DNA of 35,740 nt, from NCBI GenBank assembly GCA_905236535.1, contig CAJOQN010000061.1, positions 1 to 35,740 on the forward strand, in the 5' to 3' direction. The translations under genes were made by a program, and so were the position numbers. Positions 25,243 through 33,263 of this stretch are shown piece by piece. Numbering within the stretch: the stretch's first letter is position 1; every line of letters begins with the position of its first letter. The DNA is from an uncultured Bacilli bacterium. Its GTDB lineage: Bacteria > Bacillota_I > Bacilli_A > RFN20 > CAG-826. Below the pieces are notes generated by a model, which was not told where the DNA came from, did no database searches, and was given only the letters and a program-made list of their open reading frames with translations.

Positions 25243-26952
25243 GTGAAAGAAAAAATCTTAAACAAACCAGATTTAAAAAAGGCGATTCAAAGAGATTCTA
25301 GTGTTTCTCCGATTATTTATGTTGAAGACAATCGTTCTCAAAAGCTTTTAGATTTCGCCAAAGATAAAAAATATTACATTCACACCTATGGTTGTCAGGC
25401 TAATGTCAGAGACGAAGAATCGATGAGAGGAATGCTTGAGAGCATTGGTTTAACAAAAACTGAAAATAGAGAAGAGGCGGATGTTATCCTTCTTAATACC
25501 TGTGCGGTGAGAGAAAACGCTGAAGATAAATTATATGGAGAAATTGGTAACCTTAAAGGTTATATGGAAAAGCATAAAGATGCGGTTCTCGGCATCTGTG
25601 GTTGTGTTCCTGAAGAACCTGAAATCTTAGAAAGAATTCTTAAAACGTTCCCATATGTTAATTTGGTCTTTGGCACTCATGAAGTTTATCGCTTACTTGA
25701 GTTCCTTGAAGAAGTTATCTCTTCTAAAAAGAGATTAATCGCCGTGGAATCTAAATCTGGAGAAGTCTATGAAGGTTTACCAGTTATTAGAACTTCTAAA
25801 TATAAAGCCTTTGTTAATATTATTTATGGTTGTAATAAATTCTGTACTTATTGCATTGTTCCTTACACTAGAGGAAAAGAAAGAAGCCGTAAGTTCTCTG
25901 ATATCTTAAAAGAATGCCAAGAACTTATTGATGATGGGTATCAAGAGATTACCTTATTAGGCCAAAACGTCAATGCTTATGGAAAAGATTTAGATGAAGG
26001 AAAAGACTTCGCTGACCTTTTGGAAGCAGTGGCAAAACTTGGAATTCCTAGACTTAGATTCACAACATCTCATCCATGGGATTTTACCTCAAAGATGATT
26101 GATGTTATCGCTAAATATGATAATGTCATGAACTTTATTCATCTTCCAGTGCAATCTGGAAATGACAATGTTCTTAAAAAGATGGGAAGAAGATATACCT
26201 CCTCAGATTATTTAAAACTCGTTAAAGAGATGAAAGAAAAGATTCCAGGATTAGGATTATCCACGGATATCATTGTGGGCTTCCCAAATGAATCAGATGA
26301 AGAATTTAATGACACTTTAAAACTAGTGGATGAAGTAGAGTATGATTCCGCGTTCACTTTTATCTATTCACCAAGAAAAGGGACACCTGCTGCGAGGATG
26401 GAAGATACTATCTCTAAAGAAACTAAAGGCAAGAGATTTAAAGAATTAGTTAGTCATCTTGAAAAGAGTATCAGCGCCTCCAGTGAAAGAATGGTGGGTC
26501 AAGTTTATGATGTCTTAGTGGATGGAGTAAGCAAAAATAATGAGGATATGTATAGTGGTTACACCGAATCTAATAAGCTCGTCCATTTCAAAGGCGATGA
26601 ATCGATGGTGGGTAAGATAATTAAGGTTAAAATTACTGAATCCCATACTTACTCCTTAATTGGTGAAGTTATTAGTGATGATCCCATTATTCAAAAAGCC
26701 AAAGAATTAAAAGAATGTTTGAAAAATGAGCCAGTTTTAGAGGAATATTTAAGGATTAAAGCTATTTTTGAAGTCGATGAATCATTAAAAGAACTCCGTC
26801 AAAAGATTGCTGAATCAAAAGCTAAAAACGAAAAGGATGAATATGATAGATTAAAACAAATGTATGATAATCATCCACTTGTCATTAACTACTATAAAGC
26901 CAAAGAAGAAGCGATGGAGTTATTAAAAGGATTGCACGATATTATCCAATAA
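25243..26952 (+). CDS. miaB: tRNA methylthiotransferase MiaB fused to a C-terminal YmcA/YlbF (RicA-like) domain
   Basis: TYGCQAN, NTCAVRE, radical-SAM GCNKFCTYC, TRAM domain ending SLIGE, then about 90 extra helical residues. Confidence 0.95.
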   Translation: MKEKILNKPDLKKAIQRDSSVSPIIYVEDNRSQKLLDFAKDKKYYIHTYGCQANVRDEESMRGMLESIGLTKTENREEADVILLNTCAVRENAEDKLYGEIGNLKGYMEKHKDAVLGICGCVPEEPEILERILKTFPYVNLVFGTHEVYRLLEFLEEVISSKKRLIAVESKSGEVYEGLPVIRTSKYKAFVNIIYGCNKFCTYCIVPYTRGKERSRKFSDILKECQELIDDGYQEITLLGQNVNAYGKDLDEGKDFADLLEAVAKLGIPRLRFTTSHPWDFTSKMIDVIAKYDNVMNFIHLPVQSGNDNVLKKMGRRYTSSDYLKLVKEMKEKIPGLGLSTDIIVGFPNESDEEFNDTLKLVDEVEYDSAFTFIYSPRKGTPAARMEDTISKETKGKRFKELVSHLEKSISASSERMVGQVYDVLVDGVSKNNEDMYSGYTESNKLVHFKGDESMVGKIIKVKITESHTYSLIGEVISDDPIIQKAKELKECLKNEPVLEEYLRIKAIFEVDESLKELRQKIAESKAKNEKDEYDRLKQMYDNHPLVINYYKAKEEAMELLKGLHDIIQ

Positions 26953-26983: not shown

Positions 26984-26989
26984 TAAAAT

Positions 26990-29900
26990 ATGAAGCAACT
27001 CATCTATAAATCATACACAAATTCATCCACTGATTTTTTAGTGTCACTCCAAGAGAATTTACCAGGAGAAAGTAGTTATCTCCCACTTGATGGAAGCGTT
27101 TCATCCTATGTTTCTCTTATTCTTACCATCTCAGGATTAAACCTTCATAAAAACGACATTATCACCAATGTGACTTTGAAGTTTGAAACAAGTGCGACTT
27201 CAGGTCAAAACAATATCTCTCTTCAAGCTAATGGAACCCTCATTGACTATTCAACTAATAGAAACGAGACTGATTCCATTTATTTTGATATTACACATCT
27301 TTTCTTAACAGATTTTAATAATAACAAAACCTTCACTTTAAATCGTAACGGGAATAACAATATGACCTTTTATCTTAGACAGCCATCTGATAATGGTCTA
27401 TGCCCTGAATTAATAATTAAATATATTCCTGCTTTTGATTTTATCGATAATCAAAATAAGATTAGTGGAAGTATTGGGGATGATATGTCTTATTCTTTAT
27501 TTCTTCCGTCTTCTTTATTTAATGTTTCTTTAAAACTATTTCCTACCTTGCTTCCGTTTGAATTATCGTTTATCTATTCTTCCTATAATCCAAATCAAGC
27601 TAATTCTATTTTCCCAAAAGGCTGGAATCTTAATCTTTTATCTTCTTTAATCATAGAGTCTAATCAAATTACCCTTATAAATGCTTCTCAGATTCAAAGA
27701 GTGTTCCTCCCTGTTCCTAATGAAAGTGGATCTTACTTTGATTCAAGTGGAAGTGGACGTCTCCTCAAACTTATCAATAATGAATATCACCTCTATTCAA
27801 ATACCTTTGATGAAGACTCATATAGTGTTTTCTCTTTAGCTGGTGATATCACCTCAATCCATCTTTTAGGATATGGAGATATCACGATTACTAGAGATAC
27901 CTCTTCTCTTACGATTACAGATTATAACGGGAATGTTGTGACCTTTTTAAAATCTACACGTAGTTCATTATCCTCTCTCACCATTTCTTTAAGCGGATTT
28001 AATTCAAATTATTATTCCTTGCTTGGCAATAATTCAAATTCGTTAACCAATCTAAATTCTGATGATGGATTTTATTCTTTTTCCTATGATTTATCCAACA
28101 ATCTGATCCAGATTATTTCTCCTTCAAATGACACGTTGAAGCTATCGTATGATTCTAACAAGCGAATTAATAAGCTCGAAGAAGGAACAAGAATAAATAA
28201 CGTCAATACTTTTTCTAACTCCTATTCCATCACTTATCAACTATTCAAATATTCAATCACCGATTTTCATAATGTAATGGTGAATTATACCTATGATGAT
28301 GAATTAAGACTATTAAGCGCCTATGAACCCGAAAAGAGCAACTTTATTGGAGCGTATAAACATAGTCTTGTTTCTTCTCATAATATTCCGTTTAATAGCC
28401 TTTCATACAAATGCACTTTAAAAAATGGAAATAATGAAAGTGCTTCTATTACCTTATCTTCTTCAAACAACAATCAAAGTGTCTCTTTTATTGGATCTTT
28501 ATCAAACAATGAGACTTTTTTGAATAACAAATACTATGTCCTTGCCTTTAAACTTGATCGCTCGCCTTTGATATATTTTGAAAGCGATCATAATACCTTT
28601 TTCTCAGCTGAGAGAAGTGTTTACGCTTTGATGGAGTGTTATGATTCAAATAATAACCTCGTCTATGGGACAAGCGCCTATGTCCCTTTGATCATTAATG
28701 AAGCGACAAACGAGATAATTTTCCCATTTAAATTTATAGAGACCACTGAGTATTCTTTGGTAAATAAAATTAAAATCACCTTCTATTTAAAGGGCGATTA
28801 CGGTTCATTCACTTTTAATGATTTCAAAATCTATGAATCCTTAGAACAAGAAAAGGAGATGTATTTGGAAGTTTCTGATTCTTATCAAAGCCCAGACCTT
28901 GTTATCAATTTTAAAAAATATAAGAAAATCATTTCTTTAAAACAATATATCTACTCAACCCCATTTAACCTTTCCTATCAAGATTTCATCATCAATAAAT
29001 TGAGGTATTATTTTTCTAGTCCATCTTTTATTTTTTATAACAGACTCAGAGAGATTATTTCTTTTAATAATCAATATAACGCTGCGACATATGATGGTGA
29101 CATTTATATTAATCACTCTAATAACATCGCTCTTATTTCTAAAAGTCAAACTAGTGATTCTTCCTCGCTTTATTTAGAAGCCCAAATCCTTAAATATGAT
29201 CCTGATAACACTAATTACTTCATTATTGAAACCATCAAAAAACATGGAGTTATAGAAGAAATAACAAAATCATATTATGACAAGCACTTTAGACTCATCA
29301 AAACCATCGATAAGGATGGGATTGTTTCTTTAAATACCTATTCATCCGCGAATAATCTCACCTCGAATAAAGTGTATTTAGAAAATAATCTAAGTAAATA
29401 TTTTGAGACCACATATTCTTATAATAGACATCGTCTCACCCAAGAGAGTTACTTTTCTTCAACTTCTGTTGTCTCTAAGCAATATACATATAAGAATTAT
29501 TCTGAGATATGCACTAAATATACAAATCCTAACTCCAATAGTTTTGATTATTCATATTCCACAAATTATAAATATCTCACTAAAAATAGATATCATTTAG
29601 GGATGACCGTGGATGATTACACCCAAAGTTCATATTCTACTCAAAAGTTATCTAACACCTCATCTTCTAATCACACAAAATATCTTTTCACCTATGATAA
29701 ATATAACCTTTTAGCCTCGTTTGATTATGAGGAGTACACAAGTGGAGGTGGAGGTATCACTCCTTTTGATCCACTTGAGCCAATTGGACCTATCTCAATT
29801 GGAGATACCTATTACACCGATGACCCTCCAACATATTCAAAACTTATCGAATTTAGAAACGAGATAACCTCTAACGGAAAAACCAACCTCGCGATTTATA

Positions 29901-32047
29901 AAAATCACGATGTTATCATTTCGGAGTTTGATAAATATAGTCGCTTAACTTCTCTTAGATGTGAGAAGGATGGTGTTTCTCAAGGGGAAGCTACTTATTT
30001 ATATGCGGATTTAGATTGGATTATTAATAACTTTTATCCTTATAATTCGCCAATGTTTGATATTGCAAGCGTTCCTAATGACTATATTTCTTCAGAATCT
30101 AAACTGATCAAAATAACTGATGATGTCTTAAGCTGTTATACTTTATTCTTTTATTATCCAAATGGTTTAGTTAGTGAAATATATGTGACGGATGCTCCAT
30201 ATTCAAATATGATTGCTACCGAGTCTTTTGCTTATGATAGTCTTTTTAGACCAACAAGAGTTGCGTTTGATTATGTAGCCCCATTTGCAGCCACAATTAG
30301 AACATATGAATATGATGGTCTAGAAAAACAGCCATATAAGGAATTTATTACTCTAGATAGTCAAACCTCTCCAACTTTTGCTGTTGAAATCCATAAAGAC
30401 TCATTTGGAAGAGCCTCTCAAATAGATGAAAAGTTTACATTCTCAAAAGGATTCATCTATTCTTATGATTACTTTACGAATGGGACGCTTTTAAGTAATT
30501 TAGTTTCATCTATTGCAATAACGAGTGTTGCTAATTCATCAAATTATTCCGTCAATGATTTAACATATGATAACAACGGGAATATAACTTCAATTACCGA
30601 AACAATTCATGAGGGCAATCAAACACCAGTTACTTATCATCGCTCTTTCTCTTATTCAAGCACTGGGGTGTTGTTAAGAGACAATAATGAACAGCTTGGT
30701 AAAAGCACTAAATATGCATATGATTCAAATGGCAATATTAAAACCATTGTTTCGGGAACCTATTCAACATCATCTACAATTCCTAATTCCACAACTAAAA
30801 CATTCACTTATAGTTCAACATTTCCTGATCTTTTAACTGATTATAATGGCTCCACAATTGAATATGATGCTTATCTCAATCCTATTAGATGGGGCACAAC
30901 ATATTATGAATGGACTAGGGGAAGACTATTAAGCAAATGGCAAAAAGGCTCCACAACTGTCACATTTACCTATAACGATTCTGGATTAAGAACCTCAAAA
31001 ACGGTTGGATATACTACTCGTTTGTATTTTTATAATTCATCTAACCAACTTACTTATGAAACTACAATTGGGAATGTGACTAGTTATTACTATTCACTTA
31101 ATGGAATAGTTGGCTTTAAATACAATGGGAATCTTTATTATTACAAAAAGAACATCTTTGGTGATATCACTCATATCTATAATAGCAGTGGCAACCTTGT
31201 AGCCACTTATAAATATGATGCCTACGGTAACACAATAGTATGTAACCCAAATGGTATAGAGAATACCTCATCGTCGTTTATTGGTAATATCAATCCTTTT
31301 AGATATAGAGGGTATTACTATGATAAAGAAACCGGGTTATACTATTGTAAGTCCAGATACTACAATCCAACATGGTGTCGATGGCTCAACGCTGATTCTT
31401 TAGATTATTTGGATAACACTGAGATAGGTGGTATTAACTTATTCTCATATTGTCATAATAATCCAGTGATGTTTAAGGATGAGACTGGTCACCTACCAAC
31501 TTGGGCAAAATGGGTGATTGGAGGAGTTACTTTTGCTATATCTATCGCTTTGACGGTCGCTACTGCTGGTTCTTTGGCTCCTCTCTTTATTGGCATGGGT
31601 ATTAGTATTTTGGGTGGAGCATTAGTTGGTGGATTATCCTATACAATTGAAAACAAAGATTTTTGGGATGGTTTTGCAGAAGGAGCTGCCGATGGTGCAA
31701 TGTGGGGAGGTATTTTTTCATTAGTAGCTTCTTTATTTAATGTTGTTTCAATGGCTAGACAAGGATATACTATCGGAAAATATGGAGTTTACCAAGATGT
31801 TGCAAGAGCGACCGGAACTAATTATTATAGAGGCATGAAATCATATAATTTTGTTAAAAGCATTCTTGGAGAAAAAACAGCGAATACTTTAGCGTGGACA
31901 CAAAACAAATTTGTCTTAAAAACGGTTATGTTATTTCGCGGCCCAATTTTTAATGCAGTTAGCCCATTAACAGGAACATATGCAAAGGAAGTTGCTTTGA
32001 TTACCTCTCTGGGATATAAATATTTTTATGAAGTTTGGCCGTATTAA
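26990..32047 (+). CDS. RHS/YD-repeat polymorphic toxin-like protein (1685 aa)
   Basis: YD repeats (TYDNNGNI, AYDSNGNI, KYDAYGN), RHS core NPFRYRGYYYDKETGLYYCKSRYYNP...NLFSYCHNNPVMFKDETG, hydrophobic Gly-rich segment, variable tip. Confidence 0.92.
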   Translation: MKQLIYKSYTNSSTDFLVSLQENLPGESSYLPLDGSVSSYVSLILTISGLNLHKNDIITNVTLKFETSATSGQNNISLQANGTLIDYSTNRNETDSIYFDITHLFLTDFNNNKTFTLNRNGNNNMTFYLRQPSDNGLCPELIIKYIPAFDFIDNQNKISGSIGDDMSYSLFLPSSLFNVSLKLFPTLLPFELSFIYSSYNPNQANSIFPKGWNLNLLSSLIIESNQITLINASQIQRVFLPVPNESGSYFDSSGSGRLLKLINNEYHLYSNTFDEDSYSVFSLAGDITSIHLLGYGDITITRDTSSLTITDYNGNVVTFLKSTRSSLSSLTISLSGFNSNYYSLLGNNSNSLTNLNSDDGFYSFSYDLSNNLIQIISPSNDTLKLSYDSNKRINKLEEGTRINNVNTFSNSYSITYQLFKYSITDFHNVMVNYTYDDELRLLSAYEPEKSNFIGAYKHSLVSSHNIPFNSLSYKCTLKNGNNESASITLSSSNNNQSVSFIGSLSNNETFLNNKYYVLAFKLDRSPLIYFESDHNTFFSAERSVYALMECYDSNNNLVYGTSAYVPLIINEATNEIIFPFKFIETTEYSLVNKIKITFYLKGDYGSFTFNDFKIYESLEQEKEMYLEVSDSYQSPDLVINFKKYKKIISLKQYIYSTPFNLSYQDFIINKLRYYFSSPSFIFYNRLREIISFNNQYNAATYDGDIYINHSNNIALISKSQTSDSSSLYLEAQILKYDPDNTNYFIIETIKKHGVIEEITKSYYDKHFRLIKTIDKDGIVSLNTYSSANNLTSNKVYLENNLSKYFETTYSYNRHRLTQESYFSSTSVVSKQYTYKNYSEICTKYTNPNSNSFDYSYSTNYKYLTKNRYHLGMTVDDYTQSSYSTQKLSNTSSSNHTKYLFTYDKYNLLASFDYEEYTSGGGGITPFDPLEPIGPISIGDTYYTDDPPTYSKLIEFRNEITSNGKTNLAIYKNHDVIISEFDKYSRLTSLRCEKDGVSQGEATYLYADLDWIINNFYPYNSPMFDIASVPNDYISSESKLIKITDDVLSCYTLFFYYPNGLVSEIYVTDAPYSNMIATESFAYDSLFRPTRVAFDYVAPFAATIRTYEYDGLEKQPYKEFITLDSQTSPTFAVEIHKDSFGRASQIDEKFTFSKGFIYSYDYFTNGTLLSNLVSSIAITSVANSSNYSVNDLTYDNNGNITSITETIHEGNQTPVTYHRSFSYSSTGVLLRDNNEQLGKSTKYAYDSNGNIKTIVSGTYSTSSTIPNSTTKTFTYSSTFPDLLTDYNGSTIEYDAYLNPIRWGTTYYEWTRGRLLSKWQKGSTTVTFTYNDSGLRTSKTVGYTTRLYFYNSSNQLTYETTIGNVTSYYYSLNGIVGFKYNGNLYYYKKNIFGDITHIYNSSGNLVATYKYDAYGNTIVCNPNGIENTSSSFIGNINPFRYRGYYYDKETGLYYCKSRYYNPTWCRWLNADSLDYLDNTEIGGINLFSYCHNNPVMFKDETGHLPTWAKWVIGGVTFAISIALTVATAGSLAPLFIGMGISILGGALVGGLSYTIENKDFWDGFAEGAADGAMWGGIFSLVASLFNVVSMARQGYTIGKYGVYQDVARATGTNYYRGMKSYNFVKSILGEKTANTLAWTQNKFVLKTVMLFRGPIFNAVSPLTGTYAKEVALITSLGYKYFYEVWPY

Positions 32048-32387
32048 ATTACAACACAATAATAGTGCCATGATTAAGGCATTTAGATTTCTTTTTGATG
32101 AATTTGATTTGGAACTTGATTTTTGTTATCCATATGGTTTTCAATGGTCAAAATGGTCAAACTCAAAAATGTCTATCAAAATATCTTTTTTTTATTCTGA
32201 TTCACCTTTTTTTATTTTTGCTATTGGTTCGACAGAACAAAATCCAATCAGTTTTTATTATGAATTTTCTCCGCCTTTTTCTGATAACATGATTCAAATG
32301 CCCCTCACAGAACTTTTTTATCTTGCGGCAGACTGGTTTAAGAAGAAACTTTTTGATATACTACATCCTTGCTGTAATTTCTTTTAA
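32028..32387 (+). CDS. Putative cognate immunity protein
   Basis: Small Phe-rich ORF overlapping the rhs stop by 20 nt (alternative ATG 32070); fills the gap to miaA. Confidence 0.6.
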   Translation: MKFGRIKLQHNNSAMIKAFRFLFDEFDLELDFCYPYGFQWSKWSNSKMSIKISFFYSDSPFFIFAIGSTEQNPISFYYEFSPPFSDNMIQMPLTELFYLAADWFKKKLFDILHPCCNFF

Positions 32388-32402: not shown

Positions 32403-33263
32403 ATGCTTTATATCATTGTTGGTCCAACAGGCTCTGGAAAGACTGCTTTAGCGCATCAATTATCTGACCTCTTTGATAAGTGTCCTTTAGTGAATGCGGA
32501 TGCTTTTCAAGTGTATAAAGATTTAGATATTGGGACTGCGAAGATTAAAAAAGATTCGCCTTATTATTCTCGTTATCAACTTCTTGATTATCTATCCCCT
32601 GATAAGCCATTCTCTATTAAGGATTTTCAAGACGATTTCAGAAAAGTGGTAGATCCTAATAAAGACTATGTTGTCGTTGGTGGTTCTGGGCTTTATATTA
32701 AAGCCGCGATCTATGATTATTCATTCCCAGAAGAAGAACAATCATTTGATAACTATGATGATTTAAGCAATGAAGAATTATATTCAATGCTTCAAGAATT
32801 AGATATTGAAGCTTCTAAGAATATTCACCCTAACAATCGTAAGAGAGTGATAAGAGCGATTCAAATTGCGAAAAGCGGCCTCACTAAAAGTGAAGTGATT
32901 GAATCTCAAGAGCATAAGCTTTTATATCCATGTCGAATTATCTTTATCAATCCACATAGAGATGAATTATATGAACACATCAACAAACGAGTGGACATTA
33001 TGATTAAAGAAGGTCTCGTGGATGAATGTAAGATGCTCTTAGAGAAATATGAGTTATCCCTTACTGCAAGACAAGCGATTGGATATAAAGAGATATTTGA
33101 TTATTTAGAAGGTAAATGTTCTTTAGAATCTGCGATTGAATTAATTAAAAAGAGAAGTAGAAATTATGCGAAGAGACAAGTTACTTTCTTTAAACATCAA
33201 TTTCAGACAATTGAATATATAAGTGCTGAAGAAGCACTAAAGGCTATTAAAAATGAAAGATGA
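32403..33263 (+). CDS. miaA: tRNA dimethylallyltransferase
   Basis: GPTGSGKT, DAFQVYK-LDIGTAK, VGGSGLY, AIGYKE, NYAKRQ. Confidence 0.97.
   Translation: MLYIIVGPTGSGKTALAHQLSDLFDKCPLVNADAFQVYKDLDIGTAKIKKDSPYYSRYQLLDYLSPDKPFSIKDFQDDFRKVVDPNKDYVVVGGSGLYIKAAIYDYSFPEEEQSFDNYDDLSNEELYSMLQELDIEASKNIHPNNRKRVIRAIQIAKSGLTKSEVIESQEHKLLYPCRIIFINPHRDELYEHINKRVDIMIKEGLVDECKMLLEKYELSLTARQAIGYKEIFDYLEGKCSLESAIELIKKRSRNYAKRQVTFFKHQFQTIEYISAEEALKAIKNER

Follow-up and report, generated by a model that had tools for sequence, protein, structure and literature searches.

An RHS polymorphic toxin-immunity module without recognisable Sec or type VII targeting in a probably wall-less gut member of the Bacilli

RHS gene, downstream reading frame and insertion site

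The window analysed here is the complete 35,740-nucleotide contig CAJOQN010000061.1 (C61) of an uncultured Bacilli bacterium, whose 1.05-Mb genome is assembled in 114 contigs and estimated to be 75.6% complete. Between miaB and miaA it carries a gene for an RHS protein of 1685 amino acids (aa), which overlaps by 20 nucleotides with a downstream open reading frame (ORF) of 119 codons. An earlier note on this DNA, drawn up from the letters alone, had described an RHS gene with an intact core and a DETG cleavage motif, a small overlapping ORF behind it, and neither a secretion nor a mobility gene adjacent to the pair. Our analysis concurs: both reading frames are present as described, the core scores above the family cut-off and the motif was located exactly, and the neighbours are housekeeping genes, namely miaB, miaA and a gene of the ThiF family (Pfam). 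In one respect the note needs correction, as the pair, which it had called stand-alone, has two further RHS paralogues on other contigs. The features of the locus, all on the forward strand, are as follows.

26990..32047, + strand: RHS polymorphic toxin gene, 1685 aa; intact ORF with matches to TIGR03696, TIGR01643 and solved RHS shells
26990..27439, + strand: all-beta N-domain without signal peptide, aa 1-150; a diverged binding module similar to CBM96/DNRLRE is probable (ESM Atlas, hhalign)
27539..27697, + strand: DUF6531-like plug region, aa 184-236; PF20148 with E 0.0044 and 17.8 bits, under the cut-off of 24.1
28403..29149, + strand: beta-rich stretch, aa ~472-720; no BLAST match in 57 database homologues or the two paralogues
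31214..31492, + strand: Rhs-associated core with C-terminal autoproteolysis motif (TIGR03696); 76% identity to each paralogue in this block
31478..31489, + strand: DETG cleavage motif, aa 1497-1500; Asp aligned to solved chains
31490..31762, + strand: tip part 1, tip aa 1-91; three long helices, putative pre-toxin membrane module (AlphaFold2 model)
31763..32044, + strand: tip part 2, tip aa 92-185; small alpha/beta domain, putative toxin, with conserved E167 (homologues, VIA-align)
32028..32387, + strand: very probable immunity gene, 119 aa (profile of ORFs behind homologous tips; hhalign)
25243..26952, + strand: miaB, left border of the insertion (Pfam UPF0004, Radical_SAM, TRAM)
32403..33263, + strand: miaA, right border of the insertion (Pfam IPPT, E 2.3e-67)

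The Rhs-associated core TIGR03696 was matched at aa 1409-1501 with E 7.7e-20 and 71.2 bits against a cut-off of 32.5, and the YD repeat TIGR01643 with 25.2 bits against 15.8 (both NCBIfam); the Pfam RHS_repeat model did not reach E 0.01 in the window protein, but did so in both paralogues. The protein as a whole matches the solved RHS shells of type VI secretion system (T6SS) effectors and of Tc toxins (8h8a, 5kis, 7q97, 8cp6, 6l7i and 4igl). In HMMER alignments the aspartate of DETG falls on that of the terminal D-x-x-G in 5kis, 8h8a and 8cp6; the upstream aspartate of the sequence NADS likewise aligns to aspartates of these three chains, and the proline of the motif is replaced by a glutamate in the window protein. 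Note that the solved core fragments 8h8a_A, 8cp6_B and 6l7i_G end at most one residue from the end of the match, and such chain ends near the motif fit a predicted self-cleavage after DETG. The RHS protein up to this point comprises ~1500 aa, built of a beta-rich N-domain, a plug-like region, YD repeats and a conserved core that ends in DETG. A low-confidence AlphaFold2 model places long beta strands at aa 472-617, and a BLAST search with aa 481-720 returned the query itself as its sole match.

Three RHS genes were found in the genome: the one in the window, a second of 1710 aa on contig C45, and a third on contig C13, of 1673 aa and cut at the contig end. All three have the same N-terminal layout, with core identities of 76-80% and tips that bear no relation to one another, which is the outcome of the genome-wide search for paralogues with variable tips that the earlier note had recommended. 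As conserved shells here carry unrelated tips, the set bears, by sequence comparison, the signature of a polymorphic toxin family. We rejected a reading of these genes as pseudogenes, all three copies being open over ~5 kb in a genome of ~30-40% G+C by window profile. GC skew runs from -0.08 to -0.22 across most of the RHS gene (window positions 27000-31000) and is positive in the flanks, probably owing to codon use rich in Ser, Thr, Asn and Tyr, or else to a foreign origin. Behind the C13 paralogue lies the gene of a 385-aa membrane protein (C13:5020-6174), and behind the C45 paralogue two ORFs of 179 and 175 aa (C45:17541-18601), all of them candidate immunity genes.

In 22 of 29 relatives from the host's family miaB and miaA are direct neighbours, as compared with a spacing of 5450 nucleotides in the window; the remaining relatives comprise six loci without miaB within 1.5 kb and a single locus with a 1.3-kb gap. 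By this comparison the RHS pair is identified as a 5.4-kb insertion between miaB and miaA. Because a genome of the same genus (84% complete) retains an uninterrupted miaB-miaA junction and has no Rhs core, the module is further judged to be a recent insertion, with no mobility gene adjoining it.

N-terminal domain, toxin tip and immunity protein

An in-frame TAA at 26984 lies one codon before the ATG, and therefore no upstream signal sequence is possible. Within the first 70 residues the highest 12-residue Kyte-Doolittle mean is 1.85, reached at residue 41 inside the N-domain, as compared with values of 2.0-3.6 near the N-terminus in 39 of 57 database homologues, mostly long proteins of Clostridia, by the same crude measure; throughout this work the test for signal peptides was this hydrophobicity heuristic and not SignalP. 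In Pfam the protein matched no PAAR, LXG or WXG family, the weak DUF6531 match being the only one, and the DUF6531-like stretch is the best-conserved N-terminal part among the three paralogues, none of which has a signal peptide. The earlier statement that signal peptide, PAAR, WXG and LXG signatures are all missing from this protein is thus upheld by the stop before the ATG, the lack of a hydrophobic N-terminal segment and the negative Pfam search. Plain signals of the lipoprotein type are seen at the start of other ORFs in the window and SecE is present in the genome, from which it follows that the organism uses Sec normally.

The first ~150 aa occupy the place that a DNRLRE domain takes in the longer homologues from Clostridia. 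An hhalign comparison of the N-domain with an alignment of 20 DNRLRE domains was weak (P 9e-4, probability 22.7%), and its three best matches in the ESM Atlas are CBM96 clusters (0.93, 0.92 and 0.92), with a low count of at most 145 shared features; neither NF033679 nor PF24517 was matched in searches of NCBIfam and Pfam. An AlphaFold2 model of aa 1-760, calculated from a 5-row alignment, was all-beta with a mean predicted local distance difference test score (pLDDT) of 50.9, too poor for a fold search. Taken together, a diverged carbohydrate-binding module is probable for this domain, in keeping with an extracellular function.

The tip released by the predicted cleavage would consist of 185 aa and was modelled with a mean pLDDT of 90.9, showing helices at residues 4-24, 30-53 and 58-91, the first two hydrophobic and rich in glycine, followed by a small alpha/beta domain. 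An exhaustive HMMER search returned 117 tip homologues at E<=1e-3, of which 44 reach E<=1e-10; RHS proteins or fragments thereof are frequent among them, and the best is 65% identical over the entire tip. As one alignment of the tip, A1, was too divergent for a scan of the genome collection, the scan was run with a closer one, A2. Residue E167 does not vary in A2, and its conservation in A1 is at least 90%. Pfam, NCBIfam and PADLOC held nothing for the tips, and phmmer against the sequences of the PDB gave a chance-level match only. In structural comparison with VIA-align, neighbours of the alpha/beta domain had Z scores of 5.7-7.4 and root-mean-square deviations of 2.2-3.2 over 75-91 residues. 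They include nucleoside 2-deoxyribosyltransferases, at Z 7.4-6.2, together with a CD38-like toxin of a T6SS at Z 7.2 and numerous TIR domains at Z 6.1-5.7. The resemblance of the modelled domain to TIR and deoxyribosyltransferase folds is only a lead towards a possible N-glycosidase activity, NADase-like, via E167.

A hydrophobic segment starts within 40 residues after the cleavage motif in 27 of the 27 evaluable RHS proteins from the host's order and in two of the three paralogues of the host itself, often with the shared motif W-x-G...D-G-x-M-W-G-G-I. Among database homologues it was seen in 7 of 19 evaluable proteins with a signal and in 8 of 12 without one; in 10 of 37 order proteins and 26 of 57 database proteins the motif pattern did not find the cleavage site, and these were hence not evaluable. 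The helical module is common to tips with different C-terminal domains and looks like a conserved pre-toxin membrane module of many tips of the order, one that may take the toxin into or across the target membrane. The tip of the C45 paralogue has no hydrophobic start and carries a Gly-rich hydrophobic segment in its last 40 aa, the reverse of the other two.

A word-indexed search with the 119-aa ORF retrieved only itself, and neither this ORF nor those downstream of the paralogues had a match in Pfam, NCBIfam or PADLOC; the family emerged instead from genomic context. Scanning the genome collection with the tip yielded 14 loci in metagenome-assembled genomes from the gut, labelled Ca. Scatousia, Eubacteriales, Oscillospiraceae and Clostridia, and with two weak short matches (L068 and L069) left out of the count, an ORF of 101-122 aa belonging to one family lies directly downstream of the tip in 12 of the 12 other loci examined. 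A profile of those 12 ORFs matches the 119-aa ORF of the window (E 4.4e-11 with Z=1 for the single target; hhalign 94.2%). Because of this conserved linkage of ORF family and tip family, the 119-aa ORF is very probably the cognate immunity gene. A complex prediction for the alpha/beta domain and the 119-aa protein gave no verdict and counts neither way.

Export machinery, cell wall and a holin cassette in relatives

As the earlier note had suggested, genes of the type VII secretion system (T7SS) were sought throughout the genome, of which about three quarters is assembled. Neither WXG100 (PF06013) nor YukC (PF10140) was found, and for EssC (TIGR03928) there was an FtsK-like match of 131 bits only. 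The survey was extended to 201 genomes of the order, of 0.8-2.4 Mb and 140 of them at least 90% complete, none of which has EssC above the cut-off; a single fragment of 768 bits, in genome G174, falls just below it. No PAAR domain was seen by Pfam in the RHS protein, and no search for T6SS genes in the genome was made.

The Rhs core is present in 67 of the 201 genomes, with up to 16 core matches in one genome. From the matches listed in the order, 37 RHS ORFs of at least 1400 aa were fetched. Only two of the 37 encoded proteins pass the crude hydrophobicity threshold and neither is convincing, the first owing its score to a doubtful TTG extension and the second to a stretch at residue 43 that lies within a beta strand. 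Judged from these sequences, the lack of a signal characterises the order as a whole, whether the family is walled or wall-less. Four genomes (G008, G015, G021 and G057) hold 12-16 Rhs-core matches each in 1.5-2.4 Mb, many of which cover only the last ~50 core positions in ORFs of 100-330 aa and look like arrays of orphan tip cassettes.

Neither a penicillin-binding protein (PBP) transpeptidase nor MraY was found in the host genome, and the cell is therefore probably wall-less. PBPs occur in 56 of the 201 genomes and in 3 of 65 from the host's own family; they are present in 11/11, 23/31 and 12/12 genomes of other families and near-absent elsewhere (4/66 and 1/12). By this census the order mixes walled and wall-less lineages, and the pattern among families suggests that the cell wall was lost repeatedly or long ago. 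A small membrane ORF of the host (C107:644-949), beside a DivIC homologue, matches Spore_YabQ with 29.7 bits against a cut-off of 27, in this same genome in which no PBP or MraY was found.

ORFs in the 6 kb upstream of the 37 RHS genes were clustered, three loci having less than 1 kb of upstream sequence. A recurrent order was observed on the strand of the RHS gene: a ~100-aa membrane/coiled-coil protein, a holin, one or two proteins ending in a minimal nucleotidyltransferase domain, and the RHS gene. The first of these, seen in 8 loci, matches phrog_1863 (function unknown) and has no match to Pfam XhlA. The holin, of ~96 aa and of the Hol44 family, reaches 41.9 bits with PF16079 (cut-off 29.2) and also matches phrog_1129 'holin' (E 1e-11); it lies within 2.5 kb upstream on the same strand in at least 11 of the 37 loci, from five families. 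One or two nucleotidyltransferase proteins of ~290 aa, often in two copies, directly precede 15 of the 37 genes, and 7 other loci have instead a multi-helix membrane protein of 153-175 aa and of no known family. At least one of these accessory genes is carried by 24 of the 37 loci. Across the order the Hol44 holin occurs in 20 of 201 genomes, and RHS genes are present in 17 of the 20 genomes with the holin, as compared with 50 of the 181 without it.

The ~290-aa protein, exemplified by loci L043, L044, L045, L046, L052 and L053, consists of an N-terminal part of ~190 aa and a C-terminal minimal nucleotidyltransferase domain (PF01909/PF18765; PDC-S09-like in PADLOC). The N-terminal part gave uninformative scores of at most 0.86 in the ESM Atlas, and candidate roles of the protein are those of a regulator, a chaperone or a part of a toxin-antitoxin system. 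In L043, L044 and L045, which belong to three genomes of one family, a conserved trio of genes (~410-610, 150 and 331-345 aa, the largest with a P-loop-like motif) precedes the holin cassette on the opposite strand, 3-6 kb upstream of the RHS start, and may be part of a larger island.

By analogy with Tc toxins, the linkage suggests holin- or lysis-type release in these relatives, and we regard it as the most useful new lead to come from the locus. No report linking a holin to RHS toxins of Bacillota, or RF39 to Rhs, was found in a literature search that missed most subscription journals.

Release, rival explanations and known systems

We consider it moderately probable that the locus encodes a functional RHS toxin-immunity module, one of three paralogues, acquired by a small-genome, probably wall-less gut bacterium with genes of the Bacilli type, whose product is released in a holin- or lysis-type manner without Sec or T7SS. 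The tip would be cut off after DETG and retained inside the RHS shell, and the protein would exit the producer independently of Sec and T7SS by such a release; in the probably wall-less host this could be the simple lysis of some cells or a route yet to be recognised. Outside the cell the CBM96-like N-domain would bind the target surface, the hydrophobic three-helix module would insert in the target membrane and bring in the alpha/beta domain, and the latter may cleave the N-glycosidic bond of NAD+ or of a nucleotide through E167, sister cells being protected by the 119-aa protein. The earlier note had proposed a delivery route not described before. The negative half of that proposal stands, and more widely than had been proposed: the protein has no Sec signal and a T7SS was not found, either in the host genome or, judged by EssC, in the order. 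Its positive half is a hypothesis, for which the holin cassette of relatives offers a concrete candidate.

Several observations weigh against this explanation. In the host genome tblastn found no holin, no nucleotidyltransferase accessory gene and no phrog_1863-like gene, PF16079 gave a chance-level match of 15.5 bits only, and none of 70 small membrane ORFs matched the holin families of PHROGs and Pfam. Upstream of the RHS genes on C61 and C45 lie housekeeping genes (miaB and a QueT transporter gene, respectively), and the 5' flank of the C13 paralogue is lost at the contig end. No endolysin was seen in the cassette of the relatives, and the Hol44 holin cannot be the general release route, given that 50 of the order's 67 genomes with RHS have none. 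The linkage of holin and RHS genes is moreover a correlation in gene order that does not show export and that leaves the host genome outside; the loci behind it include near-duplicates (L019/L020 and L024/L030), and related genomes are non-independent samples. As for the toxin itself, the fold matches are middling (Z<8), which according to the tool can reflect a common arrangement, and Foldseek of the tip against the PDB returned nothing at E<0.1. In the host, release may occur when wall-less cells lyse, by way of vesicles or through a gene that was missed, or the protein may not be exported.

A wider version of the explanation, which we entertain only tentatively and consider doubtful, holds that the whole order of small-genome gut Bacillota exports RHS toxins without Sec or T7SS via a dedicated cassette in front of the toxin gene, composed of the phrog_1863-type protein, the Hol44 holin and the ~290-aa nucleotidyltransferase protein and similar to type 10 secretion, that the pre-toxin module carries the toxin across the target membrane, and that wall-less members, the host among them, have dropped the cassette and release the same cocoons by lysis or membrane shedding. 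Release might also need no export gene in a wall-less producer, if vesicles were shed or membranes made contact or fused with those of the target, the tip helices aiding the loading. A cell wall is probably missing in the host, its genome yielded no holin, Hol44 is likewise lacking in 11 of the 12 sampled genomes of its family that bear RHS, and the hydrophobic tip start is universal among evaluable proteins of the order (27/27) as compared with 7 of 19 evaluable homologues with a signal, all of which would suit such shedding or fusion; signal-less RHS genes are found, however, in the walled families of the order too, and the helices sit behind the cleavage site and so should be enclosed by the shell. 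We therefore give it a low probability. A known exporter, T7SSb or another, might sit in the unassembled quarter of this genome of 114 contigs, and the 768-bit EssC fragment of G174 speaks for it, but EssC is absent above the cut-off from all 201 genomes, including the 140 with a completeness of 90% or more, the host yielded neither WXG100 nor YukC, and Pfam detects neither an LXG nor a helical domain at the N-terminus of the RHS protein; this is the least probable of the alternatives.

A further alternative is a protein that never leaves the cell, an intracellular suicide or addiction module, akin to abortive infection or to toxin-antitoxin systems, in which the shell is a safety container and the 119-aa protein an antitoxin. 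Neither an export signal nor an exporter was found, the RHS gene is tightly set in a housekeeping operon, and the tip combines membrane helices with a TIR/deoxyribosyltransferase-like domain whose VIA-align neighbours include the anti-phage TIR proteins 8v6t, 7qqk and 9phb. Swapped tips on a conserved shell are nevertheless a hallmark of competition toxins, the N-domain resembles carbohydrate-binding modules, 39 of the 57 database homologues have N-terminal signal-like segments and hence are extracellular, PADLOC has no match for either the RHS or the immunity protein, and the holin of the relatives fits release; we hold a purely intracellular role to be quite unlikely. Somewhat less remote, though still improbable, is the idea that toxicity resides in the Gly-rich hydrophobic helices, which would form a pore and depolarise the membrane in the manner of Tse5, the alpha/beta domain being accessory. 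Such helices are indeed part of the tip, some tips of the order consist almost solely of such segments, and an Rhs pore-forming toxin is known (PMC10684867). Against this stand the occurrence of the helical module in tips with differing C-terminal domains, the invariant polar residues of the alpha/beta domain and its co-occurrence with the immunity family, and the lack of a sequence match to the Tse5 tip.

Holin- or lysis-type release of an RHS toxin can be set beside several known systems. WapA of Bacillus subtilis is a Sec-exported, wall-associated protein with a signal peptide and wall-binding repeats. For Streptococcus suis, WapA is reported to be an RHS toxin with a polymorphic C-terminus and a downstream immunity gene (PMC12704120). 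The window protein shares with WapA the RHS shell of a Bacillota lineage, the polymorphic C-terminal toxin and the immunity gene downstream; unlike WapA, it has no signal peptide or wall-binding repeats, and its host is probably wall-less, which weakens the comparison with Gram-positive WapA that the earlier note had drawn. LrhA of Listeria is a signal-less Rhs toxin of 1656 aa associated with a T7SSb (EssC8) and resembles the window protein in size, in DUF6531 and YD repeats, and in its variable tip and downstream immunity gene (PMC10327511). LrhA has a helical N-terminal region and three small WXG100-like partner genes beside essC8, whereas the N-domain here is beta-rich and, as stated above, EssC, WXG100 and YukC were not found in the host, nor EssC in any of the 201 genomes.

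Tc toxins provide a precedent for release, a signal-less RHS cocoon being freed by a type 10 lysis cassette of holin and endolysin (PMC10847048). Like the Tc BC cocoon (TcdB2-TccC3, YenB-YenC2), the window protein appears from its sequence to be a signal-less RHS shell with the same C-terminal aspartyl autoproteolysis motif, its core aligns to TccC3, TccC2 and YenC2, and the RHS genes of relatives lie behind a phage holin. Unlike Tc toxins, it has no SpvB or TcdB domains by Pfam, and the largest ORF of the genome has 1947 aa, TcA families not having been searched for; the relatives carry a holin of a different family, accompanied by neither endolysin nor spanin as far as was seen, gut Bacillota are the producers here, and the host genome yielded no holin. 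Tse5 of Pseudomonas aeruginosa is a T6SS Rhs protein with a pore-forming hydrophobic tip (PMC10684867). The hydrophobic Gly-rich tip in an Rhs shell is common to both proteins and the core aligns to 8cp6_B, but Tse5 is a Gram-negative T6SS substrate, its tip has no sequence similarity to the one described here, and the latter has an extra alpha/beta domain. Large clostridial toxins, whose release depends on a holin (TcdE type), are likewise very large, signal-less proteins of Bacillota encoded beside a phage-derived holin; they differ from the present case in that the shell here is of the RHS type and the holin of the relatives belongs to a different family.

The module is of the known RHS toxin-immunity kind, its tip-immunity family is new, and its setting is unusual in that the host is probably wall-less and that targeting to Sec or T7SS is lacking across the order. 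The analysis defines this toxin-tip family together with the immunity family that goes with it, and a hydrophobic pre-toxin module that tips of the order have in common. The known export routes for RHS toxins of Gram-positive lineages are Sec (WapA) and T7SSb (LrhA), and the RHS proteins of this order, common and uncultured gut bacteria with many RHS genes, fit neither. If the proposed release is correct, holin-mediated release would apply not just to insecticidal Tc toxins and clostridial exotoxins but also to toxins of interbacterial competition, and it would show how wall-less bacteria join toxin warfare; the recurrent holin cassette makes this a specific and genetically testable hypothesis.

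Two further observations concern genes outside the module. At its C-terminus the miaB product of the window has a YlbF/YmcA-like domain (PF06133, aa 482-569, E 8e-6); the fusion is unusual, and miaB of relatives apparently has it as well. The 1947-aa ORF mentioned above (C114:1757-7597) has a clear Ala/Leu-rich signal peptide and a composition unlike the rest of the genome, and may represent contamination, estimated at 2.3%, or a foreign surface protein.

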